Source: a virus (lineage: Duplodnaviria; Caudoviricetes). Taken from it: DNA of 64,000 nucleotides. The translations under genes and the position numbers were made by a program. The notes under the pieces are model-generated. The model had not been told where the DNA came from. It searched no databases and saw only the letters and a program-made list of their open reading frames with translations. Below, in pieces: positions 40 to 58,238 of this stretch (position 1 is its first letter; each line of letters begins with the position of its first letter). Location of the stretch: IMG/VR virus record IMGVR_UViG_3300036958_000333, positions 32,001 through 96,000 of that record; one strand, given 5' to 3'.

Positions 40-333
40 ATGGAAATACATGATTTTATGAATAATCCAAATACTAGAATATTGGGAATATATCACAGTA
101 GATCAAAAATATTTTTAAATGGAAAATTCTCAGATTTTGATTCTCAAAGATACTTAAAATCAAGATATAGACATATAATAAGAGACGCTAATAGAAAAAG
201 AAACCATGGTTTAGAAGTTAAGAGAATATTAGATGAATATCATAGGAATTATTTAAGTGATTTAAACGTTAATGAAAACAAAACTCTTTCTATAGACGAA
301 ATATTTAATCAAAGAAAAAACATGGTAATATGA
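40..333 (+). CDS. hypothetical protein
   Basis: 97-aa ORF with ATGA overlap to the next ORF; no recognisable motif. Confidence 0.6.
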   Translation: MEIHDFMNNPNTRILGIYHSRSKIFLNGKFSDFDSQRYLKSRYRHIIRDANRKRNHGLEVKRILDEYHRNYLSDLNVNENKTLSIDEIFNQRKNMVI

Positions 334-1122: not shown

Positions 1123-1962
1123 ATGCCAATATATAAAAATACTTCTTTTTCACATTTGTTTCTACCGAGAGAAGATGGAAAAGTTCCAGATATATCTTTA
1201 CATCCAAATGATACATTTAATGGATCAGAAGCTTTTTATAAAAGATATGTGGGAAATCCTCATTATTTAATTACAAGACAAGTTGATGGATATAACGCAC
1301 CATGTAGCTTGATCGCTGGTCCAAATTTAAAATCTGACGTAGAAGGATTTATAAAAAGAGATGGAATAATAGCTTCCGATGAAGATGAAAAAAATAATAC
1401 ACAAGTTACATCTGGAACATCATATTCGGCTTTTGGAAAAATAACACTAGATGATGGAACTGGAACACTGTATAGTTTTGATTTTTCTATAACTGGCGAC
1501 GGAGATCATGGTGGAGTAAATGAATCTGTTTTTAATGTATCTGGATCTACACCTGCCGGATCGGCTATTACACCTTTAAAAGATAATTCTAGAATAGATT
1601 GTATAAATGGCTATATAAGTTTTAGACTATCTGGCGCTGGTTCTTTACATCATTCCGTAGAAGTAGTTTATGAAAAATCTGACGTTGGACATCAAGCAGT
1701 AGCGTTTTTAAATCAATTGTTAGATACTTCTAAATTATCATATAGTTATACATATGTAAGCGCCGCATCAGATGTTGGTAGTGAATATTATGTTGCTGGA
1801 TCTGCAAATCAAATAAAAACAGAAAAGATATTTGCAACAGGATCTAAAGTCGGAGATAGAGCTAAAAAGATAACATATTATTACAAAGATTCTGATAACC
1901 CTACAAAATATAGTCATAAGAAAGAAGAATTAGATTTTGTAGAATCTTCAGATCTAGGGTAA
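1123..1962 (+). CDS. putative virion structural protein
   Basis: 279 aa, Gly/Ser/Thr-rich; AGGAG RBS upstream. Confidence 0.5.
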   Translation: MPIYKNTSFSHLFLPREDGKVPDISLHPNDTFNGSEAFYKRYVGNPHYLITRQVDGYNAPCSLIAGPNLKSDVEGFIKRDGIIASDEDEKNNTQVTSGTSYSAFGKITLDDGTGTLYSFDFSITGDGDHGGVNESVFNVSGSTPAGSAITPLKDNSRIDCINGYISFRLSGAGSLHHSVEVVYEKSDVGHQAVAFLNQLLDTSKLSYSYTYVSAASDVGSEYYVAGSANQIKTEKIFATGSKVGDRAKKITYYYKDSDNPTKYSHKKEELDFVESSDLG

Positions 1963-2379: not shown

Positions 2380-3837
2380 TTAGTTATAAGATAAAAATTT
2401 ATATTGTTTTATTGGAATTAATATATTTACTGTTGTTCCTTTATTTATTTTACTAAATATATTGATTTTTCCATTATGAAATTCTACTATTTTTTTACAC
2501 ATAAATAAACCTATTCCATTTCCTTGATATAAGCCGTCATGACACTTTTGAAACATTGAAAAAACTTTGTTTCTGAACCTTCCGTCAAAACCTATACCGT
2601 TATCTTTTATTGAAATTTTTACATAATCATCAAGCTTTTTATTTATAGTTATGTTTATTATTAAGTTTTCATTGTCTTTTTTAAATTTCATAGAATTATC
2701 TAAAATATTAACAAACAATTGTTCCAATATATTCTTATCACATTCTATATCAAAATCAATATTATTCTTTATAACTATCTTTGAATTTGTTTCATTTATT
2801 TTTAATGATAATAAATTAATCGAAGAATTTATTATATCATTAATATTATGATATTTAAAATCTATTAAATCTATTGACATTTTACATAATTTTGATATTC
2901 CTTTTATTAAATTTCGTATCTTATCTGCTGAATTTTTTATTAAACCAATGTTTTTTCTAGTTTTTTCATTTATTTCACTACTTTCTGAAATTATTTTATC
3001 AGAAAAAAATAATATTTTTCTCAATGGTTCTTTTAAATCATGAGATATAAAATTAGCAAAACTATATAATTCTTGATTTGATTTTTTTAATTCTTCATAA
3101 TAAACTTTCATTTGTTCATGAAATATTTTTTTTGATGTTATATCTCTTGCTATAGCTATAAACTTATTATGATCATTTGTTTTAAATATATTAAAATTAA
3201 TCCATCTATACGAACCATCAGTGTGTTTTATTCTTGCATCAAATTTTATACTTTTATAAATATTTAATTTATTAAATTCTTCTTCTATTATTTTTTTATC
3301 TAGTTGATGAGATAAGTTTAATATATTCTTATTAATTAAATTTTCTTTAAAAAACCCAAGGATTATTTTTGAACTTCCTGTTGTTTGTTCTATTATTTTT
3401 TCTTTATTAATTCTAAATACCATAAATGTTGGATTATTAAAAATTATTTCTTTTTCTTCATTACTAAATTTAAATGGAGATATATCGGTCAATATTCCAA
3501 AAATTAATGCAACTTTTCTATTATTATCGAATATTGGAGCAACTAGAACAATTGTTCGTATATTTTCTTTATCTTTTGAAAGAAAAACTTTTTCTGAAAC
3601 ATATACGTCTTCTTCTTCATTTTTTATTTTATTTAATCTAATATAAAGATCATCCCAACTACTTTTTGATAAAATATCTTTTAAATGTTTTTTTTTAAGC
3701 TCAGAACTACTATATCTCAATAATTTACAAAAATTTTTATTAAATTTTATTATTTTCCAATTAATATCAATTATTATCATTGATGATGGAAAAGTATTCC
3801 AAAAATTACATACATCAAAATTTATCTTACTAGTCAT
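2380..3837 (-). CDS. cytoplasmic PAS-PAS sensor histidine kinase
   Basis: two PAS-like domains (GILTDIS, DGSYRWI...ARDIT), H-box SHDLKEPLR, N-box NILDNSMKF, DNGIGF, GNGIGL; no TM segment seen. Confidence 0.92.
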   Translation of the reverse strand: MTSKINFDVCNFWNTFPSSMIIIDINWKIIKFNKNFCKLLRYSSSELKKKHLKDILSKSSWDDLYIRLNKIKNEEEDVYVSEKVFLSKDKENIRTIVLVAPIFDNNRKVALIFGILTDISPFKFSNEEKEIIFNNPTFMVFRINKEKIIEQTTGSSKIILGFFKENLINKNILNLSHQLDKKIIEEEFNKLNIYKSIKFDARIKHTDGSYRWINFNIFKTNDHNKFIAIARDITSKKIFHEQMKVYYEELKKSNQELYSFANFISHDLKEPLRKILFFSDKIISESSEINEKTRKNIGLIKNSADKIRNLIKGISKLCKMSIDLIDFKYHNINDIINSSINLLSLKINETNSKIVIKNNIDFDIECDKNILEQLFVNILDNSMKFKKDNENLIINITINKKLDDYVKISIKDNGIGFDGRFRNKVFSMFQKCHDGLYQGNGIGLFMCKKIVEFHNGKINIFSKINKGTTVNILIPIKQYKFLSYN

Positions 3838-22098: not shown

Positions 22099-22521
22099 AT
22101 GATTAGTTTTTTATCTGGAATACATTTTTATAAGTCTCAATATCCAAAATCTACTGGATTAATAAAAACTAGTAATAATAGAGATTGGATTGACTGTTCT
22201 ATTAATAGTATTGGAATACAAAATGCTTCTTTGTTTTGTATTGGTATTCCAAATAGAAAAATAGAAGATTTCTATGAATATTTTACAAACAATAATATAA
22301 TTTGGTATAAACTATATTTTAATAATGCTGGAAAAATATTTAAAATATTAAAAGTTAATTCTTTTAATTTAAAATCTTCTGATATATTAAATTATAATAA
22401 ACTATATCCTTTATATGAATATAAATTATCTTCATATGTAAGAGACGTAAATTATACGGAAGATGGTGAATATAGTACTTATATTGATTTTAAAATTAAT
22501 TACGGAAATAATTATGAATAA
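22099..22521 (+). CDS. hypothetical protein
   Basis: 140-aa ORF with AGGA RBS. Confidence 0.6.
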   Translation: MISFLSGIHFYKSQYPKSTGLIKTSNNRDWIDCSINSIGIQNASLFCIGIPNRKIEDFYEYFTNNNIIWYKLYFNNAGKIFKILKVNSFNLKSSDILNYNKLYPLYEYKLSSYVRDVNYTEDGEYSTYIDFKINYGNNYE

Positions 22522-23650
22522 ATATCCTATTTCTTTCAAGAATATTTATGAAGGAGTTGTTTGTTCTCAAGATTCTAGAATATCTGTATTTTGGACCGGG
22601 CCATTAGGAGCTCCAGCAGGAACAAAAGATTCTCAATGGTTAATAGAACCTGGAGAAATAAAATTATATAATAATTCATCTGAGCCATATAAAAATATGC
22701 AAAATATTACTTTTATTTGTGAATTTGATTCTGAAACAAATCTTGCCCCTGGGCCAGGTGGATATAATGCAAAACAATCTCCAGGATCTGATCCAAGACC
22801 ATTGTTATTAAAAGAATCTACTGAAATAGTTCCTTCTGATAAGTATATAAGTTATCAACAAAGATCGGATTTTACAGATGGAGAAGTTTTATCTGGTACA
22901 GGAGATGGAACAATATTTTTAACATCAGCTAAATTAGAGATTTGGATACCATTTTGTAATTATCCTCAAGATGAAGAATCAGAACTTGTAGATGAATATA
23001 TTATACCACCAGAAAGAGATGATCCTAATTTTTCTAATTGGGTCGGTGGATCTAATCGCGACGAAGGATTTGTTGATAAATACTATAAAAATCAAATATT
23101 ACATATAAAAACGTCTGGAAATAATCAAGGATATTATATTATTAAAAGTGTTTCATGGAATGGATCAGAATTTGAAATTACAATAGATCCTACTGGAGAA
23201 TATGGAGGATTGTATAAAGAAAATGGATTGTCTGGAAACATATTAGCAAATATGCCAGGATCAAAAAGATTTGAGATAGAATATATAGATGGAATATATT
23301 ATTGTGACGGTTGGGTTGATACTTTAGGAGAAAATACTGATAGACCTGGGTATTATTATTATACAAAACCTAATAATATAACCCAACAAGCCGTAGATAT
23401 TCAAACAGAATTACAAGAAAATGCAAGTTCGTATACGTGTGAGATAATTATAAACCCAGTAGGATCAAATCTTAAAGAATATATACCACTACATATTTTT
23501 CAAATTGTTCCATATTGGCTAATTGAAAGTAAAATTGATTCTAATGATATTATACCGGCATGGAAATTTACATTAAAAAGTATAGTAAGAGAAATAGATA
23601 AATTAAGTTCAAGAATTAAAAATTATTGGGAAAATCTTGATGGATCATAA
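22463..23650 (+). CDS. putative structural protein (true start probably 22514)
   Basis: Gly/Pro-rich acidic protein; shares a motif with 20300-21358. Confidence 0.5.
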   Translation: MVNIVLILILKLITEIIMNKYPISFKNIYEGVVCSQDSRISVFWTGPLGAPAGTKDSQWLIEPGEIKLYNNSSEPYKNMQNITFICEFDSETNLAPGPGGYNAKQSPGSDPRPLLLKESTEIVPSDKYISYQQRSDFTDGEVLSGTGDGTIFLTSAKLEIWIPFCNYPQDEESELVDEYIIPPERDDPNFSNWVGGSNRDEGFVDKYYKNQILHIKTSGNNQGYYIIKSVSWNGSEFEITIDPTGEYGGLYKENGLSGNILANMPGSKRFEIEYIDGIYYCDGWVDTLGENTDRPGYYYYTKPNNITQQAVDIQTELQENASSYTCEIIINPVGSNLKEYIPLHIFQIVPYWLIESKIDSNDIIPAWKFTLKSIVREIDKLSSRIKNYWENLDGS

Positions 23651-31787: not shown

Positions 31788-32119
31788 AAAAAATATTATT
31801 ATTTATATATTTTATATTTGTATCTGAAACAAAACTTAAATATTGTTTTAAATGCCCATATTTTTCTTTAAATAAAGAATATAAATTTAAAAAATCATTT
31901 AAATATTTTAGATTAAAATATCTAAAATATTTATATTATAAATATTTTAATATATTAAAAGAAGGATATTGCGAAATTACAATAATAAATCCAGTATTTA
32001 AAGATCATATTAATATTATTACAAAAGGTTATGAAAAATGTATTATAAAAGATATAAAAAATGAAATTAAAGATGCTAGAAACATAAAAGATTTTGAAAA
32101 AAAAGATGAAAATGGATAA
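31784..32119 (+). CDS. hypothetical protein
   Basis: ATGA overlap; CxxC motif. Confidence 0.45.
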   Translation: MKKILLFIYFIFVSETKLKYCFKCPYFSLNKEYKFKKSFKYFRLKYLKYLYYKYFNILKEGYCEITIINPVFKDHINIITKGYEKCIIKDIKNEIKDARNIKDFEKKDENG

Positions 32120-33811: not shown

Positions 33812-34840
33812 TTAAGACCAAGCAGTAAATGAAATTGCAGTACTATGAAGAATCTCTAAAATACCAGTTTCTGTTAATATTAAAATACCAGCGGTTCCAG
33901 TATTAGCGTTTATTTCATAAAAACCACGAATATTATCTCCGGTATCATAATAAGCATTAGCTGTTGTTCCGTTAACAACGCCACGATTATAATAAATAAT
34001 AGTAGATATTGTATCGGCCGCTTGGCCTCCGCTCCTAGTCCATGTTAACGTTCCAGTAGAGTTTCCAACAAATGTACCAGTTAATTCTGTTAATGCGCCG
34101 CCACATGTATCATCAGTAACAGAAACAGTTAATCCAGAAACAACAAATCCACCAATAAAATCTTTGTTTTCAGAATCATCGTGATATACAAATGTTCCCC
34201 AAGCAGTATAACCTTTATTTAATGTTAACAATTTTCCAAAAATAGGATTAGCAACATCAGCTTCTGTAGCTATTTTTCCATTATATTCTGGATACTTCTC
34301 AGTTAATGTAAATTGTCTATCAGCTCCACCACCACCATTTAGCGCGCCTGGAGCAAAACTTTCAACATCTGGAGAAGCAATTATTGAAGCTTTCATCATT
34401 CCTAAATAACGAGTATCTACTTGTCTTGCGATTGTATCTAAAGAAGTATCAAACCCAATACGTCTTAATCTAAGAGCATCATTTGGAACTTCTTGTACAC
34501 CATTATTATCCACATCTCCATAACCAGCCACTATATTAGATGGATTTTTTCCTGGATCTCCCCATCTAAGACCAAGAGTTGGTTTCCAACCCTGAGATGG
34601 TCTAACCGCCATATTCTCTTCTTCTATTATAGCTGATGGCGCAGCGTTTAATATTACATTAGGATCAAGGTCTCCTATTCTTTGCAACAATACATTTTCT
34701 CCGGTTTGATATTTGCTTGTGTATCTTTCAAAATAATTAGATAGACCGCTTTTAGTAGCTCCAGCTTCAATAGTTACTGGTAATCCAAATTCATCTGTAA
34801 CAATTAATTTTGCTCCAGTAAGATTTTTAAAACTAGCCAT
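33812..34840 (-). CDS. putative virion structural protein
   Basis: Gly/Thr/Ala-rich, higher GC, strong AGGAGG RBS. Confidence 0.55.
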   Translation of the reverse strand: MASFKNLTGAKLIVTDEFGLPVTIEAGATKSGLSNYFERYTSKYQTGENVLLQRIGDLDPNVILNAAPSAIIEEENMAVRPSQGWKPTLGLRWGDPGKNPSNIVAGYGDVDNNGVQEVPNDALRLRRIGFDTSLDTIARQVDTRYLGMMKASIIASPDVESFAPGALNGGGGADRQFTLTEKYPEYNGKIATEADVANPIFGKLLTLNKGYTAWGTFVYHDDSENKDFIGGFVVSGLTVSVTDDTCGGALTELTGTFVGNSTGTLTWTRSGGQAADTISTIIYYNRGVVNGTTANAYYDTGDNIRGFYEINANTGTAGILILTETGILEILHSTAISFTAWS

Positions 34841-51240: not shown

Positions 51241-52248
51241 TTAATTATTCTTAAAAATTTTTAATTTTATTTGATCTAAAAATATATTATTTTGATTATT
51301 TTTTGATTCTAATATATAATTTAAAACATCTTCTTTTCCATTTTCAATATAATATTGATTCCAGTCCTTATAATTATTTTTAGGTTTAATATATATACAT
51401 TTAATTCCATTGCTATTTAAAATATTTATTGCATTAAAAGCCGCTTCTTTTCCTGAATTATCATTATCAAATCCTATAATAACATTTTTAAATTGTCTTA
51501 AATATTCTATATGATAATCAGATAATGATTTTCCTTGTATTGAACATGAATTAATTCCAATATCTATTAATGAGATAGCATCTAGTATTCCTTCTACTAC
51601 AATAATTTCATCATATTTTTTTATATTTCCAGTAAACATTATTTCTTCTTTTTTTATAGAATTAAATTCATTTATTGGTGGATTTAAATATTTAGGTTCA
51701 TGGTTTAAGAATGTTCTAGCTGTCCAGTACAATAATTCATTATTACTATAAAATGGTATTATTATTCTTCCACAATATGTTCCTTTATCACAATATCCAA
51801 TTTTCCATTTCATAGGATCAATTTTTCTTTTTATACAATATTTTAATGCTTTTAAATTGAATTTATTTTTAGATTCTATTGTTATTGGTTGAAATGAATA
51901 TGGTAATTCGATATGTTTTTTTATTGTTTTATTTTCTTTTTCTATTTTATATTTTTTTAATAACTCAATTTTAGTTTCAAAATCTTCTATTGTATTTATT
52001 TTTGTTTTATATACTAAATCTATTGATTCTTGTTTTGAACATTTATTAATAATTTGAACTAATTTCCAAATAGGACCAGATTCATCTGATTTCCAACAAT
52101 GATAACATTTTTTTGATGGAGATATTGATAATTTAAATTTTTTATCTGGTTTAAAAGGACTATTAACAAGATAATTCCCTTTATATTTTTTATAAGAATG
52201 AAAATTTAATAATATCCAATTTTCTAATTTATTTATATCAATAATCAT
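51241..52248 (-). CDS. DnaG-like DNA primase
   Basis: N-terminal degenerate Zn-binding region (SPF...YHCW), GRIIIP, PKYLN, VVEGILD, GFDND, KDWN. Confidence 0.85.
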   Translation of the reverse strand: MIIDINKLENWILLNFHSYKKYKGNYLVNSPFKPDKKFKLSISPSKKCYHCWKSDESGPIWKLVQIINKCSKQESIDLVYKTKINTIEDFETKIELLKKYKIEKENKTIKKHIELPYSFQPITIESKNKFNLKALKYCIKRKIDPMKWKIGYCDKGTYCGRIIIPFYSNNELLYWTARTFLNHEPKYLNPPINEFNSIKKEEIMFTGNIKKYDEIIVVEGILDAISLIDIGINSCSIQGKSLSDYHIEYLRQFKNVIIGFDNDNSGKEAAFNAINILNSNGIKCIYIKPKNNYKDWNQYYIENGKEDVLNYILESKNNQNNIFLDQIKLKIFKNN

Positions 52249-53067: not shown

Positions 53068-53547
53068 ATGCTATCAAGTTATTTAGATACTGATTTAGAT
53101 GATATAAATAGATATTATAGATATAAAATGATAAATATCATAACTGTTCCTACAATATATAGTCCAGTCGATGTTTCGATTGTTCCAAAATTATTTTCAG
53201 GTATATTCTTAAGAGCAACTGAAGTAGGAATATGGATATTGTCAACAAACGAGAATAAAAATAAACGAAATTTTTTCTATCATGATAAAATAATAAAAAT
53301 AGAAGAAGTTGATTTTATAGATATAAATTCATTAGAAAAAAATCAAAAAGAAATAATAGAATCTAACATAAAAACATATGAAGATAATAGACAAAAAGAA
53401 ATAAAAGAAATACAAAAAAATATAACTAATTCTCCAGATGTTATAGATCCAACTGATTATAATAAAGTTAATGAAATGATTAATAAAGTATCTCAAATGG
53501 TTTTAGAAAAAAAGAAAAAAGATGAGGAAAATTTTTTAAGTAGATAG
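53068..53547 (+). CDS. hypothetical protein (possible Sm-like fold)
   Basis: GIFLRATEVGIWI...FFYHDKIIKI; GAGG RBS. Confidence 0.45.
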   Translation: MLSSYLDTDLDDINRYYRYKMINIITVPTIYSPVDVSIVPKLFSGIFLRATEVGIWILSTNENKNKRNFFYHDKIIKIEEVDFIDINSLEKNQKEIIESNIKTYEDNRQKEIKEIQKNITNSPDVIDPTDYNKVNEMINKVSQMVLEKKKKDEENFLSR

Positions 53548-54009
53548 TTTTAATTGTTTTATATATTCTACAAGACCTATTCCTAAAAATTTATCTAATA
53601 TAGCGATAATTAAACTAATTATAATAAAAATTAATGATTTATATAAAATTTGCTTATATTTTCTTTCTTCATCTTTTACTTCTTTAATATGATTTTCAAT
53701 TTTAGTATTTAATTCTTCTCTAATTTCTTTTATTTGAATATTTATTTCTTTTCTAAAATCTTCACATTTTAAACTCATTTCATTTAATTTTTTATCTATT
53801 TGTTCTATTAGAATTTTGCAATATGATGATTGTTTTAAAATAAGACTTTCTGCTCTTTGATCTATTATTGAAGACATATTTAGTTTTAATTCGTTAATAG
53901 CATTCTTTATATTTTCTATGCTATCGTCTTCTTTAAGATCCTTTTTAAAAAGTTCAAATAAATGGTCTAATTTATCATTTATTATACCAATTTGTTTCTT
54001 ATCTAGCAT
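53536..54009 (-). CDS. coiled-coil protein with C-terminal transmembrane segment
   Basis: heptad-rich N-terminus; LIFIIISLIIAIL hydrophobic run. Confidence 0.65.
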   Translation of the reverse strand: MLDKKQIGIINDKLDHLFELFKKDLKEDDSIENIKNAINELKLNMSSIIDQRAESLILKQSSYCKILIEQIDKKLNEMSLKCEDFRKEINIQIKEIREELNTKIENHIKEVKDEERKYKQILYKSLIFIIISLIIAILDKFLGIGLVEYIKQLKLST

Positions 54010-54692: not shown

Positions 54693-55706
54693 CTACTTAT
54701 CTTGATGAGCCTCCGCTGCAACCAAAGCTCCATTTGCAACCGCATATAAAGGATCTGACGCAGCTCTTATTTCTCTTACTTCTATTGGAAACGTATTTTT
54801 GTTAAATGTTTTAATAAAAAAATCAACAAATCCTTTTGCAGTAGAGGTTCCACCTGCAACAACTATATCAATTGGTTTTCCTGGATTTGCTTTTGTCCCA
54901 GCTTTAATAATTCCTTCTCTTATACCCTTTAATGAATTTTCTATCATGATCTCATAATGATATTGAATTGCTCTTTCTATTGAATTTTGTGGATCTTTTG
55001 ATAAATCAATTTTTTCTTTCTCAGAATTAATATATGCCGATGTTTCTCCACAAGATTGAGCAGCCGAATCATCTACATAATCTCCAGCATTAGTTAAAGA
55101 AAATTGTACTACTGGAACAGAATATAATGAAAAACATGTATTTACCATTCCTGCTCCAAAACTTATTGCAATACCAGTATATTGTTGTTCTGCCAATTCT
55201 GACATTATTATACAAAGAGCTTCATTTATAGGAAATGCTTTAATTGTTTTATTATCTATTATATATTTATCTAATATTGATTGTATTACTTTTGTATGAT
55301 ATTGAACATTTGTTTTAGTATTAATAGCATCTGCTGGTATTGAATAATAAACTATTGTATTATCTGCTTCAAGTTTTCCTATCATCGATCTTATCATTAC
55401 GGCCAATATGTTAAAAGCATCTTTTTCATTTATAGAAAGTATTCCATTTTTCATAGGTCTTTGAAATTCTTTTCCCATTGACAAAGCTAAATCTATTGCA
55501 TTTTTTCCAAGAACATATATAAATCCTCCAACCTCTATCATTGGAGCCCCTGCTTTTTTTAACATATTTACCATAAAATTGTTTTCTATTGGTATTGTAA
55601 AAAATGCATTTATTTCTCTTTTTATTTCAACTTTATTATCCTCGTTTCTTTTAGCAAGACACAAATTATAAGTTCCAACATCGATTCCATATGTTTTTAT
55701 AGACAT
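54693..55706 (-). CDS. actin-fold ATPase (volactin/MreB-like)
   Basis: phosphate1 GIDVGT, RPM, connect1 INEA, phosphate2 ISFGAGMVN, AGDYVD, adenosine VAGGTS, AVANGAL. Confidence 0.85.
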   Translation of the reverse strand: MSIKTYGIDVGTYNLCLAKRNEDNKVEIKREINAFFTIPIENNFMVNMLKKAGAPMIEVGGFIYVLGKNAIDLALSMGKEFQRPMKNGILSINEKDAFNILAVMIRSMIGKLEADNTIVYYSIPADAINTKTNVQYHTKVIQSILDKYIIDNKTIKAFPINEALCIIMSELAEQQYTGIAISFGAGMVNTCFSLYSVPVVQFSLTNAGDYVDDSAAQSCGETSAYINSEKEKIDLSKDPQNSIERAIQYHYEIMIENSLKGIREGIIKAGTKANPGKPIDIVVAGGTSTAKGFVDFFIKTFNKNTFPIEVREIRAASDPLYAVANGALVAAEAHQDK

Positions 55707-56032: not shown

Positions 56033-56548
56033 TTAGATATAATTAGATATATTTTTATATTTTTCCTTTAATATAGGATTTAAATTTTTTATTAAATAAA
56101 CAAAATTAATATTATTTTCTATTAATTTACTTTGAACATTATATGAAAGATTATTAAAATAATCTATAGGTAATTTTCTATTAGTTTTATCATAATTAGA
56201 TTTCATTATCCATGGAAATTTTAATAATGTGTTAATAACTATATTTTCATCTGGATTTTTGATATAAAAAATTGTATATATTTTTTTATTTATAGCTATT
56301 TCTTGTATTTTTTTTGTAGGATTGTCTATATATTTTATAGACCATATGTTTTTATTTATAGCTATTTCTTGTATTTCTTCGGATTGATTTTTTATATATT
56401 TTATTAAATATGGATATTTCTTGATAGCCAATTCTTGAGATTTTATAGAGGGATTTTTTATATATTTTATATTATATGGATTTAACTTTATTAATTTTAT
56501 TTGTTCTTTTTCAGATAAATTATCATATTTATCTTCAACTTTTGTCAT
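56033..56548 (-). CDS. DUF4116-like repeat protein
   Basis: IKYIKNPS..QE.AI repeats; C-terminus paralogous to 28371-29843. Confidence 0.7.
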   Translation of the reverse strand: MTKVEDKYDNLSEKEQIKLIKLNPYNIKYIKNPSIKSQELAIKKYPYLIKYIKNQSEEIQEIAINKNIWSIKYIDNPTKKIQEIAINKKIYTIFYIKNPDENIVINTLLKFPWIMKSNYDKTNRKLPIDYFNNLSYNVQSKLIENNINFVYLIKNLNPILKEKYKNISNYI

Positions 56549-57135
56549 CTTCTAAAAAGATCTCTCTCTGCATTTCTTCTTCTTGTAAGACCAGGTAATA
56601 CTCTTCCACCAGCCCTATTCCATCTTAAGAATTCATCTGCTGCATTATCATAATTTCCTCTGTTTAACTCTCTCAACAGCGTGCTTCTTCTAAAACTACC
56701 AGGACCAACGTTGTAGATAAAACTAGTTAAAGCATCTCTTTGATTTTGATTAAGAGGAACTGTTACTAATTCATCAACATATGGCATATATTGATTTAAT
56801 AATATATCTCTTAATAATTGATCTGCTCTTTGTCTTGTTATAGTTGAATTTTCATTTAAATCCGGTATATCATCTCTTGTAAATCCATATCCTATAGATA
56901 ATGTACCACCAGGATCTCTATGAGCTCTTGAACGAAATCCTTCGAAATTTCTTACTAATGTTAACAAATTAGTTGTTATTTCATCAGATTGTGTGGTTGT
57001 TTGAGATATTGTTGTAGGAGTATCTTCTTGAGTAGCATTAATCTTTGGAGATCGTGATAATGCTAACCCAGTTGCTGCTAATGTTAATAGTTTTTTTCCA
57101 AAACCTTCGTTTAAATAATTATTAAAAGTTCTCAT
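56545..57135 (-). CDS. GH24 phage lysozyme with N-terminal extension
   Basis: FEG...D...SIGYG catalytic region, LNQNQRDALTSFIYNVG, STLLR, RWNRAGG, GLTRRRNAE. Confidence 0.92.
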   Translation of the reverse strand: MRTFNNYLNEGFGKKLLTLAATGLALSRSPKINATQEDTPTTISQTTTQSDEITTNLLTLVRNFEGFRSRAHRDPGGTLSIGYGFTRDDIPDLNENSTITRQRADQLLRDILLNQYMPYVDELVTVPLNQNQRDALTSFIYNVGPGSFRRSTLLRELNRGNYDNAADEFLRWNRAGGRVLPGLTRRRNAERDLFRR

Positions 57136-57140
57136 AATTT

Positions 57141-57180
57141 ATATATATTACCTCCATTATATATATATTACCTCCATTAT
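57141..57180. repeat. exact 20-bp tandem duplication containing GGAGG
   Basis: ATATATATTACCTCCATTAT twice. Confidence 0.9.
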
Positions 57181-58238
57181 ATATATTTAAATTTATTTTT
57201 ATATAAACTTAAATATATATAATTGTCTTTTTCTTTTTGTTTACATGAATTTAATTCTAAAAAATTATTTATTTCATAATGATTTCTAAGAATATAATAA
57301 TTATCATTAATATGTTCTACAAATGCTATAGCATCTATATTATAATTTCCAGAACCAAAAACAGAACTTTCTAATCTTTTTATTATAGATTCATATTTAT
57401 TTTTACTTAAATATATTCCAATATAATCATGTTCGTTCTTTTTTAATTTAAATGATGTAATATCTATTTTAATATTATTATTTATTACATCATATGAATC
57501 TGGACCATTTATTTTAAACATGAAATCAAGATCTACTGGAATCATATATGCATTATAATACGCTAATTCATTTAATTTTCCTTTATATGCATGTTTTAAT
57601 GTATCCAATGTTTTTTCACTAAATTCTTTACATTTATTAATATATTCTTGTTTTATATCACTGTGATTTATAATATAGATATTATTATCATTTTGATATA
57701 ACAAAACATCGTTGTTTTTTTTCTTATATAAACAATCAATAAATATTTTGTAAAACATTTTTCCATTTTTACATTCATATGATCTTATTTCTTTATTGTT
57801 TATATATTTTAATAATATTTCCCCAATATAATAATATAAATTATTTTCTTTATCTACATATACTAACCTTAAAGAATCTTTATAAAACTCTTCTTTATAA
57901 GGAATACTAATGCTTATACTATTAGATTCATGATTTATTTTATTAATATAACAACTAGTTACTTTTGATCCATTTATTTTACAATTATCTACTTTTTTAA
58001 CATCAAATGTTTCATATATATTTTCATCCTCATTTAAAATTAAATGTAATGCTAATTTTTTCTTAAATCCATCTAATGTATTATCTAATATTTTTTCTAG
58101 ACTTCTATTTTGTTTATCATTTATTTTAATCTTTTCTGACATTAATTTTGATATATCTGTTATTATATGTTTTCTTATTTCTACTTCTTCAAATGATATA
58201 TATTTAAAATAATCACTAAGATTTAATTGATTAGTCAT
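57177..58238 (-). CDS. hypothetical protein
   Basis: 353 aa; possible nuclease-like C-terminus (GKLNE...D...D) not established. Confidence 0.55.
   Translation of the reverse strand: MTNQLNLSDYFKYISFEEVEIRKHIITDISKLMSEKIKINDKQNRSLEKILDNTLDGFKKKLALHLILNEDENIYETFDVKKVDNCKINGSKVTSCYINKINHESNSISISIPYKEEFYKDSLRLVYVDKENNLYYYIGEILLKYINNKEIRSYECKNGKMFYKIFIDCLYKKKNNDVLLYQNDNNIYIINHSDIKQEYINKCKEFSEKTLDTLKHAYKGKLNELAYYNAYMIPVDLDFMFKINGPDSYDVINNNIKIDITSFKLKKNEHDYIGIYLSKNKYESIIKRLESSVFGSGNYNIDAIAFVEHINDNYYILRNHYEINNFLELNSCKQKEKDNYIYLSLYKNKFKYI

Follow-up and report, generated by a model that had tools for sequence, protein, structure and literature searches.

The locus described here raises a question about protein composition: why does a phage whose proteins are rich in lysine encode a lysozyme whose catalytic domain has none? 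We analyzed a 64,000-nucleotide stretch of a Caudoviricetes genome (IMG/VR record IMGVR_UViG_3300036958_000333, positions 32,001 to 96,000), referred to below as the window. A single open reading frame (ORF) at 56545–57135 on the minus strand, 196 codons plus a stop, encodes a GH24 muramidase that is predicted to be membrane-anchored or exported and is a putative endolysin; we call it the lysozyme. Lysine occurs in it only at positions 14, 15 and 31. The remaining 165 residues contain no lysine and 22 arginines, and the whole protein is free of cysteine, so that the counts given in an earlier note on this DNA were confirmed on the 196-residue ORF. The locus presents a known enzyme type with a previously undescribed compositional adaptation that is bound to its predicted topology.

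The genomic background makes this composition unusual. The GC content of the window is 22.8%, and its 77 ORFs of at least 80 amino acids average 10.9% lysine and 2.6% arginine, giving a ratio of lysine to lysine plus arginine, K/(K+R), of about 0.8, with 92% of lysine codons being AAA. For the lysozyme this ratio is 0.11 and for its domain 0; the next lowest proteins of the window stand at 0.39 and 0.48. Its arginine fraction exceeds the mean of the window by 4.7 standard deviations. The co-transcribed gene directly downstream (56033–56548, minus strand), which overlaps the lysozyme stop in an ATGA, provides an internal contrast, as its 171 residues include 28 lysines and one arginine. The neighboring proteins are therefore as lysine-rich as had been reported, and the naive probability of a lysine-free run of this length, earlier put at about 3e-8, is slightly lower when recomputed (0.891^165 = 5e-9). 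A lysine desert has been defined as a stretch free of lysine that is at least 150 amino acids long or, in proteins of 150 amino acids or more, covers at least 50% of the sequence (Szulc et al. 2023, PMC10665810); the lysozyme is a desert by both definitions, with 165 lysine-free residues making up 84% of its 196. Because AAA triplets are common in the other two frames of the gene (7 and 12), avoidance must act at the codon or protein level and not at the nucleotide level.

Two other proteins of the window also depart from its average composition. A histidine-rich ORF of 97 amino acids at 40–333 (plus strand) is the other arginine-rich outlier, with 11.3% arginine, a K/(K+R) of 0.39 and no Pfam match. 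The protein at 33812–34840 (minus strand), called structural in the earlier note, had been cited as a parallel case, and its last 116 amino acids are indeed lysine-free, but this is a different phenomenon: the tail is rich in glycine and threonine and low in charge. Since it has only 3 arginines and the protein contains 3.5% lysine overall, no replacement of lysine by arginine has taken place there. This protein, which had no match in Pfam or PHROG, and the one at 1123–1962 (plus strand) are both glycine- and threonine-rich (3.5% and 6.8% lysine) and have similar N-terminal stretches, resembling paralogs.

The family assignment of the enzyme is clear. Residues 63–190 of the lysozyme match Pfam PF00959 over profile positions 2–125 of 125 (E = 6e-43; bit score 146.6, cut-off 22.3), and matches to the Protein Data Bank (PDB) reach an E-value of 1e-31, the best being muramidases of Acinetobacter prophages or phages. 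An AlphaFold model built from a 50-sequence alignment has predicted local distance difference test (pLDDT) values of 93–98 for residues 51–196 and leaves residues 1–50 unstructured. Foldseek relates this model with a probability of 1.00 to 9KBQ (TM-score 0.90 on the target), 6ET6, 2ANV and 3HDE, and its neighbors comprise the Acinetobacter endolysins 9KBQ, 6ET6 and 8APP, the P22 lysozyme and R21. In the GH24 catalytic pattern Glu-x8-Asp/Cys-x5-Thr, Glu65 is present, as it is in all 119 homologs, and Asp74 is in place (Asp in 89 homologs, Cys in 30). Position 80, encoded at 56896–56898 on the minus strand, is serine where all 119 homologs have threonine. The lysozyme is most likely the endolysin of the phage, and it is predicted to be exported.

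To ask what the family itself would lead us to expect, we used a set of 119 GH24 homologs for site counts and for a site model. Over the aligned region these homologs average 6.5 lysines, and every one of the 119 has at least one. Weighted column frequencies give an expectation of 6.0 lysines and a probability of 1e-3 for none; once multiplied by the amino-acid bias of the phage, the model expects 14.2 lysines and puts the probability of none at 6e-9. Taking about 15 basic sites as exchangeable, and given that arginine makes up 0.19 of the basic codons of the window, the probability that all would be arginine is about 1e-11. Individual sites point in the same direction. Arginine stands at position 62, where 61% of homologs have lysine, and also at positions 103, 133, 150, 159, 195 and 196, which are mostly non-basic among homologs. 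The arginine-bearing motifs quoted in the earlier note are real substitutions in this sense, as the solved enzymes 6ET6, 9KBQ and 9KBS carry lysine in STLL(K/R)xLN(K/R)G and WN(K/R)AGG(K/R)V.

Relatives from other AT-rich genomes behave differently. GH24 proteins on viral contigs of 31–32% GC have 11–15 lysines and 7–9 arginines, and lysine-rich relatives carry arginine at only 6–7, and lysine at 5–7, of the 22 arginine sites of the lysozyme. Across 18 loci, the K/(K+R) of the GH24 protein encoded there correlates with that of its gene neighbors (r = 0.74); this trend predicts 0.70 ± 0.10 for the window, and the observed value of 0 for the domain lies 7 residual standard deviations below it. 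The lysine-rich relatives in AT-rich genomes, together with the expectation from the site model, indicate that a lysine-free domain is not how this family behaves under AT pressure. In a metagenome scan we also observed C-terminal GH24 domains in proteins of 1142–1377 amino acids on four contigs of 29–31% GC (L030, 5448–5804; L031, 10001–10426; L033, 4739–5095; L036, 9583–9987). These domains have a GYGFTR motif related to that of the lysozyme and contain 5–10 lysines each, and the proteins that carry them resemble virion-associated lysins.

A composition of this kind could have been imported. The earlier note held that selection against lysine would be refuted by equally lysine-poor nearest homologs together with codon usage pointing to recent transfer from a GC-rich donor. 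The homolog half of this was found in part, with several nearer homologs having 2–4 lysines and 16–19 arginines; the codon half was not. The GC content at third codon positions is 0.112 in the lysozyme and 0.106 in the window (standard deviation 0.029, z = 0.2). Of the 24 arginine codons, 21 are AGA and one each is AGG, CGA and CGT, and the resulting AGA share of 87.5% is close to the 85% of the remaining window. A search of 5.8 billion clusters gave nearest proteins at 54–56% identity, and the family tree puts the lysozyme at the end of a long branch (0.83 changes per column) without a supported sister. The native codon usage, the long branch and the absence of a close donor lead us to reject recent transfer from a GC-rich donor.

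An older inheritance deserves more weight. The gene may descend from a lysine-poor, arginine-rich version in a GC-richer genome, and purifying selection may have preserved its arginines one by one, for salt bridges, for binding to anionic peptidoglycan or membrane, or for stability, with lysine itself being harmless; the count of zero would then be the tail of a low starting number. We regard this account, in both its parts, as a minority possibility that is nevertheless substantial. The homologs are arginine-rich (median K/(K+R) about 0.38, with near ones as low in lysine as described above), about ten of the arginine sites of the lysozyme are arginine in most homologs, and positions 186 and 187 are arginine in 100% of them. 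The probability of no lysine from family preferences alone is only 1e-3, and some of the hydrolases among the near structural matches have been described as thermostable. Against this, synonymous sites have equilibrated and the branch is long, leaving ample time for changes from AGA to AAA, and lysine is accepted at 5–7 of the 22 sites in the lysine-rich relatives. When lysine and arginine were merged into one state for tree building, the lysozyme fell within a clade of 17 (support 98/97) that is mostly lysine-rich (10–20 lysines), which does not suit a lysine-poor ancestry, although the inner order of the clade is not settled. A need for arginine also leaves unexplained why lysine is missing from non-basic surface positions in a phage whose proteome is 11% lysine.

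Additional evidence on this point comes from where the few lysines lie, and hence from the layout of the protein. Codons 1–15 (57091–57135, minus strand, as for all segments of the gene) encode an N-terminal tail that is predicted to be cytoplasmic and carries Arg2, Lys14 and Lys15. Codons 16–27 (57055–57090) encode the hydrophobic alanine-, glycine-, threonine- and leucine-containing segment LLTLAATGLALS, recognized by Kyte-Doolittle hydropathy, which may be the core of a signal peptide or a short anchor similar to those of signal-anchor-release (SAR) endolysins; the scan reaches its highest 11-residue value, 2.05, from residue 16. The composition of the segment is SAR-like and its length only 12 residues. 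Codons 28–55 (56971–57054) form a linker rich in threonine, glutamine and acidic residues, with Arg28 and the last lysine, Lys31; AlphaFold treats it as unstructured (pLDDT 52–60). Codons 56–196 (56548–56970) encode the GH24 catalytic domain with its 22 arginines and no lysine. Topology and segment boundaries were read by eye from hydropathy, with the data already seen.

A HMMER search run exhaustively over 1.84 billion representatives retrieved nearer relatives than a word index had given. Twelve of them carry the motif GYGFTRxDIPxL, and in relatives the predicted membrane segment lies at the matching place, with 14–22 glycine- and alanine-rich residues. Two relatives, P0121 (317 amino acids) and P0123 (309 amino acids), both known here as protein sequences alone, are 55–56% identical to the lysozyme domain and are arranged as an N-terminal tail, a predicted membrane segment of 19–22 glycine- and alanine-rich residues, a long linker and a GH24 domain; both retain the catalytic threonine. 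Their lysines are distributed much as in the lysozyme. The lysozyme, with lysines at 14, 15 and 31, has 169 residues after the membrane segment that include one lysine and 23 arginines. P0121, with lysines at 5, 29, 35 and 182, has 263 such residues with one lysine and 27 arginines, and P0123, with lysines at 10 and 12 only, has 229 with no lysine and 26 arginines. The three N-terminal tails together contain 7 lysines and 4 arginines, a clear difference from the ectodomains (Fisher p = 1.6e-6; p = 0.007–0.025 for the single proteins). The composition of P0121 is of an AT-rich type (FYMIN 0.28, GAP 0.15).

The linkers of the three proteins cannot be aligned with one another and contain stretches rich in arginine, glutamate and glutamine, Lys31 of the lysozyme being the only lysine in any of them. 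Because tails and linkers lie outside the region that contributes to the search score, the lysine pattern is not an artefact of ranking by arginine–arginine matches. The trait recurs in these two distant relatives and, judged from their predicted segments, follows membrane topology. The use of lysine before the membrane segment and its exclusion after it, within one gene, suggests selection on the exported part, insofar as the predicted topology holds. This distribution is difficult for inheritance of a lysine-poor version, since entrenchment of individual sites explains neither the lysine-free, non-homologous linkers of P0121 and P0123 nor the presence of lysine in the tails.

The position of the lysine boundary also bears on an explanation at the level of translation. 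A shortage of tRNA-Lys or its cleavage might disfavor lysine codons, as might a need to keep slippery or nuclease-sensitive A-rich sites out of the message, and a proteome of 11% lysine with 92% AAA implies heavy demand on tRNA-Lys. Yet the gene places three lysine codons within its first 31, including an A7 run, so that tRNA-Lys is still needed, and the other two reading frames contain many AAA triplets. In the lysozyme (Lys15) and in P0121 (Lys35), the last N-terminal lysine stands immediately before the membrane segment, and P0123 has no lysine after its segment. The boundary goes with the predicted membrane segment and not with codon number, and we consider an origin in translation improbable.

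Chance is the least probable of the explanations considered. The first-stage scan covered about 250,000 windows, a sample from which an extreme composition might simply have been selected, and all the models used assume independent sites. Nevertheless, the probabilities obtained under several models (about 6e-9 to 1e-11), the departure from the 18-locus trend and the recurrence of the pattern in two relatives, in regions that were not used for their retrieval, all speak against it.

If selection acts on lysine, the compartment becomes informative about its cause. Ubiquitin-like conjugation, pupylation and acylation are cytoplasmic processes that need ATP or acyl donors there. The earlier note proposed escape from such systems, or from attack of lysine amines on Hint thioesters, among the possible benefits. 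There is precedent, in that lysine deserts have been tied to avoidance of tagging by ubiquitin or Pup, an avoidance also proposed for Mycobacterium phages (PMC10665810, PMC13696103), and this phage encodes Hint-capped fibres. In the lysozyme, however, the lysines that remain are on the predicted cytoplasmic side and the lysine-free part is the exported one, which suits evasion of cytoplasmic conjugation, acetylation included, poorly; the same mismatch of compartment applies to Hint thioesters. Lysine is abundant in all other proteins of the window, cytoplasmic enzymes and fibres among them, and the window proteins scanned include no conjugation system or genes for one. We therefore judge these agents unlikely, by a hair less so than a cause in translation. 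Of the earlier proposal, selection against lysine itself was upheld, by codon usage, branch length, the lysine-rich relatives in AT-rich genomes and recurrence, whereas most of the agents suggested for it were not supported.

The explanation that we favor, and to which we give about an even chance, is selection against lysine in the envelope-exposed part of an exported GH24 muramidase, with protection from a lysine-directed hazard in the envelope as the likely benefit. According to this model, the basic tail and the weakly hydrophobic segment would hold the muramidase at the inner membrane or carry it across, and the linker and catalytic domain would wait in the periplasm until lysis. Selection would strip lysine from the envelope-exposed part, leaving arginine to supply all of the positive charge, and lysine would be permitted nowhere but on the cytoplasmic side and close to the membrane. 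Such a loss would run counter to a very strong mutational drive toward AT, in which the step from AGA to AAA needs just one change, and a favored one. A pre-positioned enzyme without side-chain amines may in this way escape a lysine-directed activity of the host envelope, which, being in the periplasm, would act throughout the latent period.

Waiting of this kind has been described for SAR endolysins, which are exported early and held in the periplasm before lysis (PMC9239132). The candidate agents would be lysine-specific proteolysis and accidental acyl transfer to lysine by peptidoglycan transpeptidases. Proteases that cut after lysine exist, and a lysine-specific protease, which had also been suggested earlier, is a possible agent. 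As for transfer, peptidoglycan L,D-transpeptidases join protein lysines to the wall, for example in Braun's lipoprotein (bioRxiv 10.1101/2021.02.21.432140, PMC10653827). We also considered Lys31 as a single activation site for a lysine-specific protease and rejected the idea, as P0123 has no lysine at all after its anchor. A general adaptation to extracellular or alkaline conditions was likewise rejected, given that the fibre-like proteins of the window have K/(K+R) values of 0.70–0.94 and the habitat is wastewater or sludge.

Several observations weigh against selection on the exported part. The GH24 family is arginine-rich by descent, and several nearer homologs contain no more than 2–4 lysines. 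The lysine-free trait is known from only three sequences, all of them singletons, and a single origin of the three was neither shown nor rejected (approximately unbiased test, p = 0.24), so they possibly represent one event. Anchored GH24 proteins are not lysine-poor as a group: the mean K/(K+R) is 0.49 in 28 anchored proteins and 0.37 in the others, and for this reason we rejected the idea that export in general selects against lysine. P0125 is lysine-rich despite a similar N-terminal tail and a shared MRT start, and together with P0124 and P0154 it has lysine on either side of the anchor and 10–18 lysines in the domain. Because other anchored relatives are lysine-rich, any agent must be specific to the host or the phage. 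The search method adds its own bias, as phmmer favors arginine–arginine matches and lifts arginine-rich relatives in the ranking; the topology was assigned post hoc and by eye, over a hydrophobic segment of only 12 residues in the lysozyme; and the scan spans so many proteins that some extreme compositions are expected by chance. The window identifies neither a lysine-directed agent, nor the host, nor a lysis partner. Further lysine-free relatives from AT-rich genomes were not found in IMG/VR scans with the volactin-like protein of the window, P0001, P0125, P0121 and alignment A1, nor in JGI metagenomes with A1, and word-index searches with P0121 and P0123 returned distant relatives only.

A more specific scenario, which we offer tentatively and hold to be somewhat doubtful, is that a lysine-directed activity of the envelope disables waiting endolysins, perhaps as an anti-lysis defense, and that a rare lineage of anchored GH24 enzymes answers it with lysine-free ectodomains. 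Whatever the agent, the lysozyme offers a clean test case. A 2026 review names the separation of lysine deserts from high GC content as the main open problem in bacteria and phages (PMC13696103). In this gene the desert stands against an extreme AT bias, the tail serves as a control for the exported part within the same protein, and sister proteins are lysine-rich. If an envelope activity does attack or capture lysine, it would be an unrecognized constraint on the staging of phage lysis and a new axis of conflict between phage and host, and no earlier lysine desert would have been traced to a hazard outside the cytoplasm. Replacing lysine by arginine could then become a simple rule for more durable therapeutic endolysins. 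If the cause is only stability based on arginine, the case would make a modest point on protein composition.

The immediate surroundings of the gene show further features. Directly upstream of the lysozyme start, a 15-bp motif, TATAATGGAGGTAAT, which includes GGAGG, occurs in two copies 20 bases apart (57147–57181, minus strand). The first copy shares bases with the stop of the gene upstream, and no third exact copy is present anywhere in the window; the duplicated motif may be a ribosome-binding or promoter element. The A7 run mentioned above lies at 57091–57097 (minus strand) in codons 13–15 (GGA AAA AAA) and supplies two of the three lysine codons of the lysozyme. Read from the sequence, a -1 slip on this run would reach a stop after two further codons. 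In a Pfam scan of the two genes adjacent to the lysozyme, one had no match and the other was weakly related to DUF4116.

The wider window is that of a phage distant from those in culture. It encodes a UvsX-like recombinase, a DnaB-type helicase and pieces of a primase and a polymerase, all recognized by matches to phage families. An identical lysozyme is recorded on 9 contigs, the longest being 272,848 bp. A megablast of 14 kb against cultured phages gave no match, and the UvsX-like protein is 31–37% identical to that of any cultured phage among the matches listed. Public sequencing runs that contain the window stretch come mostly from wastewater and activated sludge, with some from soil, digesters and biofilm. 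The Mimivirus-type early promoter motif AAAATTGA is not enriched and UvsX, primase and polymerase have PHROG matches, which together support a phage over a giant virus of eukaryotes. Two other genes on the minus strand were noted in passing: an actin-fold protein at 54693–55706 that matches Pfam Volactin (PF25216, E = 3.6e-67) over its full length and is an archaeal-type actin homolog, and a PAS-PAS-HisKA-HATPase histidine kinase at 2380–3837.

Finally, we compared the lysozyme with known systems. Solved GH24 muramidases (6ET6, 9KBQ of PHAb10, 8APP of AbLys1 and 2ANV of P22) have the same fold and the catalytic Glu and Asp at 38–42% identity, and the lysozyme shares their C-terminal helix with GLxxRRxxE. 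It differs from them in that they carry lysine at several of its arginine positions, in having serine in place of the invariant catalytic threonine, and in its N-terminal anchor and linker.

The SAR endolysins (R of phage 21, 3HDE; Lyz of P1, 1XJT; gp22 of Mu; PMC9239132) are similar to the predicted layout of the lysozyme, with two or three basic residues in the tail, a weak alanine- and glycine-rich segment and a periplasmic muramidase. In the lysozyme, by contrast, the segment has 12 residues, a cleavable signal peptide is equally possible, and a threonine- and glutamine-rich linker is inserted. As it has no cysteine, caging by disulfides is impossible. Scanning every ORF of at least 40 amino acids in the window for hydropathy revealed no adjacent membrane protein that could be a candidate pinholin, releasin or spanin; the scan flagged only three proteins (22463–23650, 51241–52248 and 53536–54009), none of which adjoins the lysozyme. 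A full-text literature search on lysine-free endolysins returned no report of a lysine-free endolysin ectodomain.

Within its own clade (98/97), P0125, P0124 and P0154, all from uncultured sources known by metagenomics, share the GYGFTRxDIPxL motif and the order of anchor, linker and GH24 domain; unlike the lysozyme, they have lysine on both sides of the anchor and 10–18 lysines in the domain. A more remote analogy is offered by the digestive lysozymes of ruminants and bivalves, in which the make-up of arginine and lysine matches the proteases and chemistry of the compartment; oyster digestive lysozymes, for instance, have fewer arginines and fewer trypsin sites than the defensive one (PMC3020801). 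They belong to a different enzyme family and kingdom, and arginine rather than lysine is depleted in them, so that the likeness is one of analogy and not of homology.

A further comparison is with the published lysine deserts (PMC10665810, PMC13696103), which the lysozyme joins under either definition, with arginine compensating for the missing lysine. Those deserts concern cytosolic tagging with ubiquitin or Pup, and for the cases from Actinobacteria and their phages high GC content is a confounder, as is acknowledged for the Mycobacterium phages (PMC10665810, PMC13696103). The desert of the lysozyme differs in both respects: it lies in a phage of 23% GC, against the mutation bias, and it is limited to the part of the protein that is predicted to be exported.

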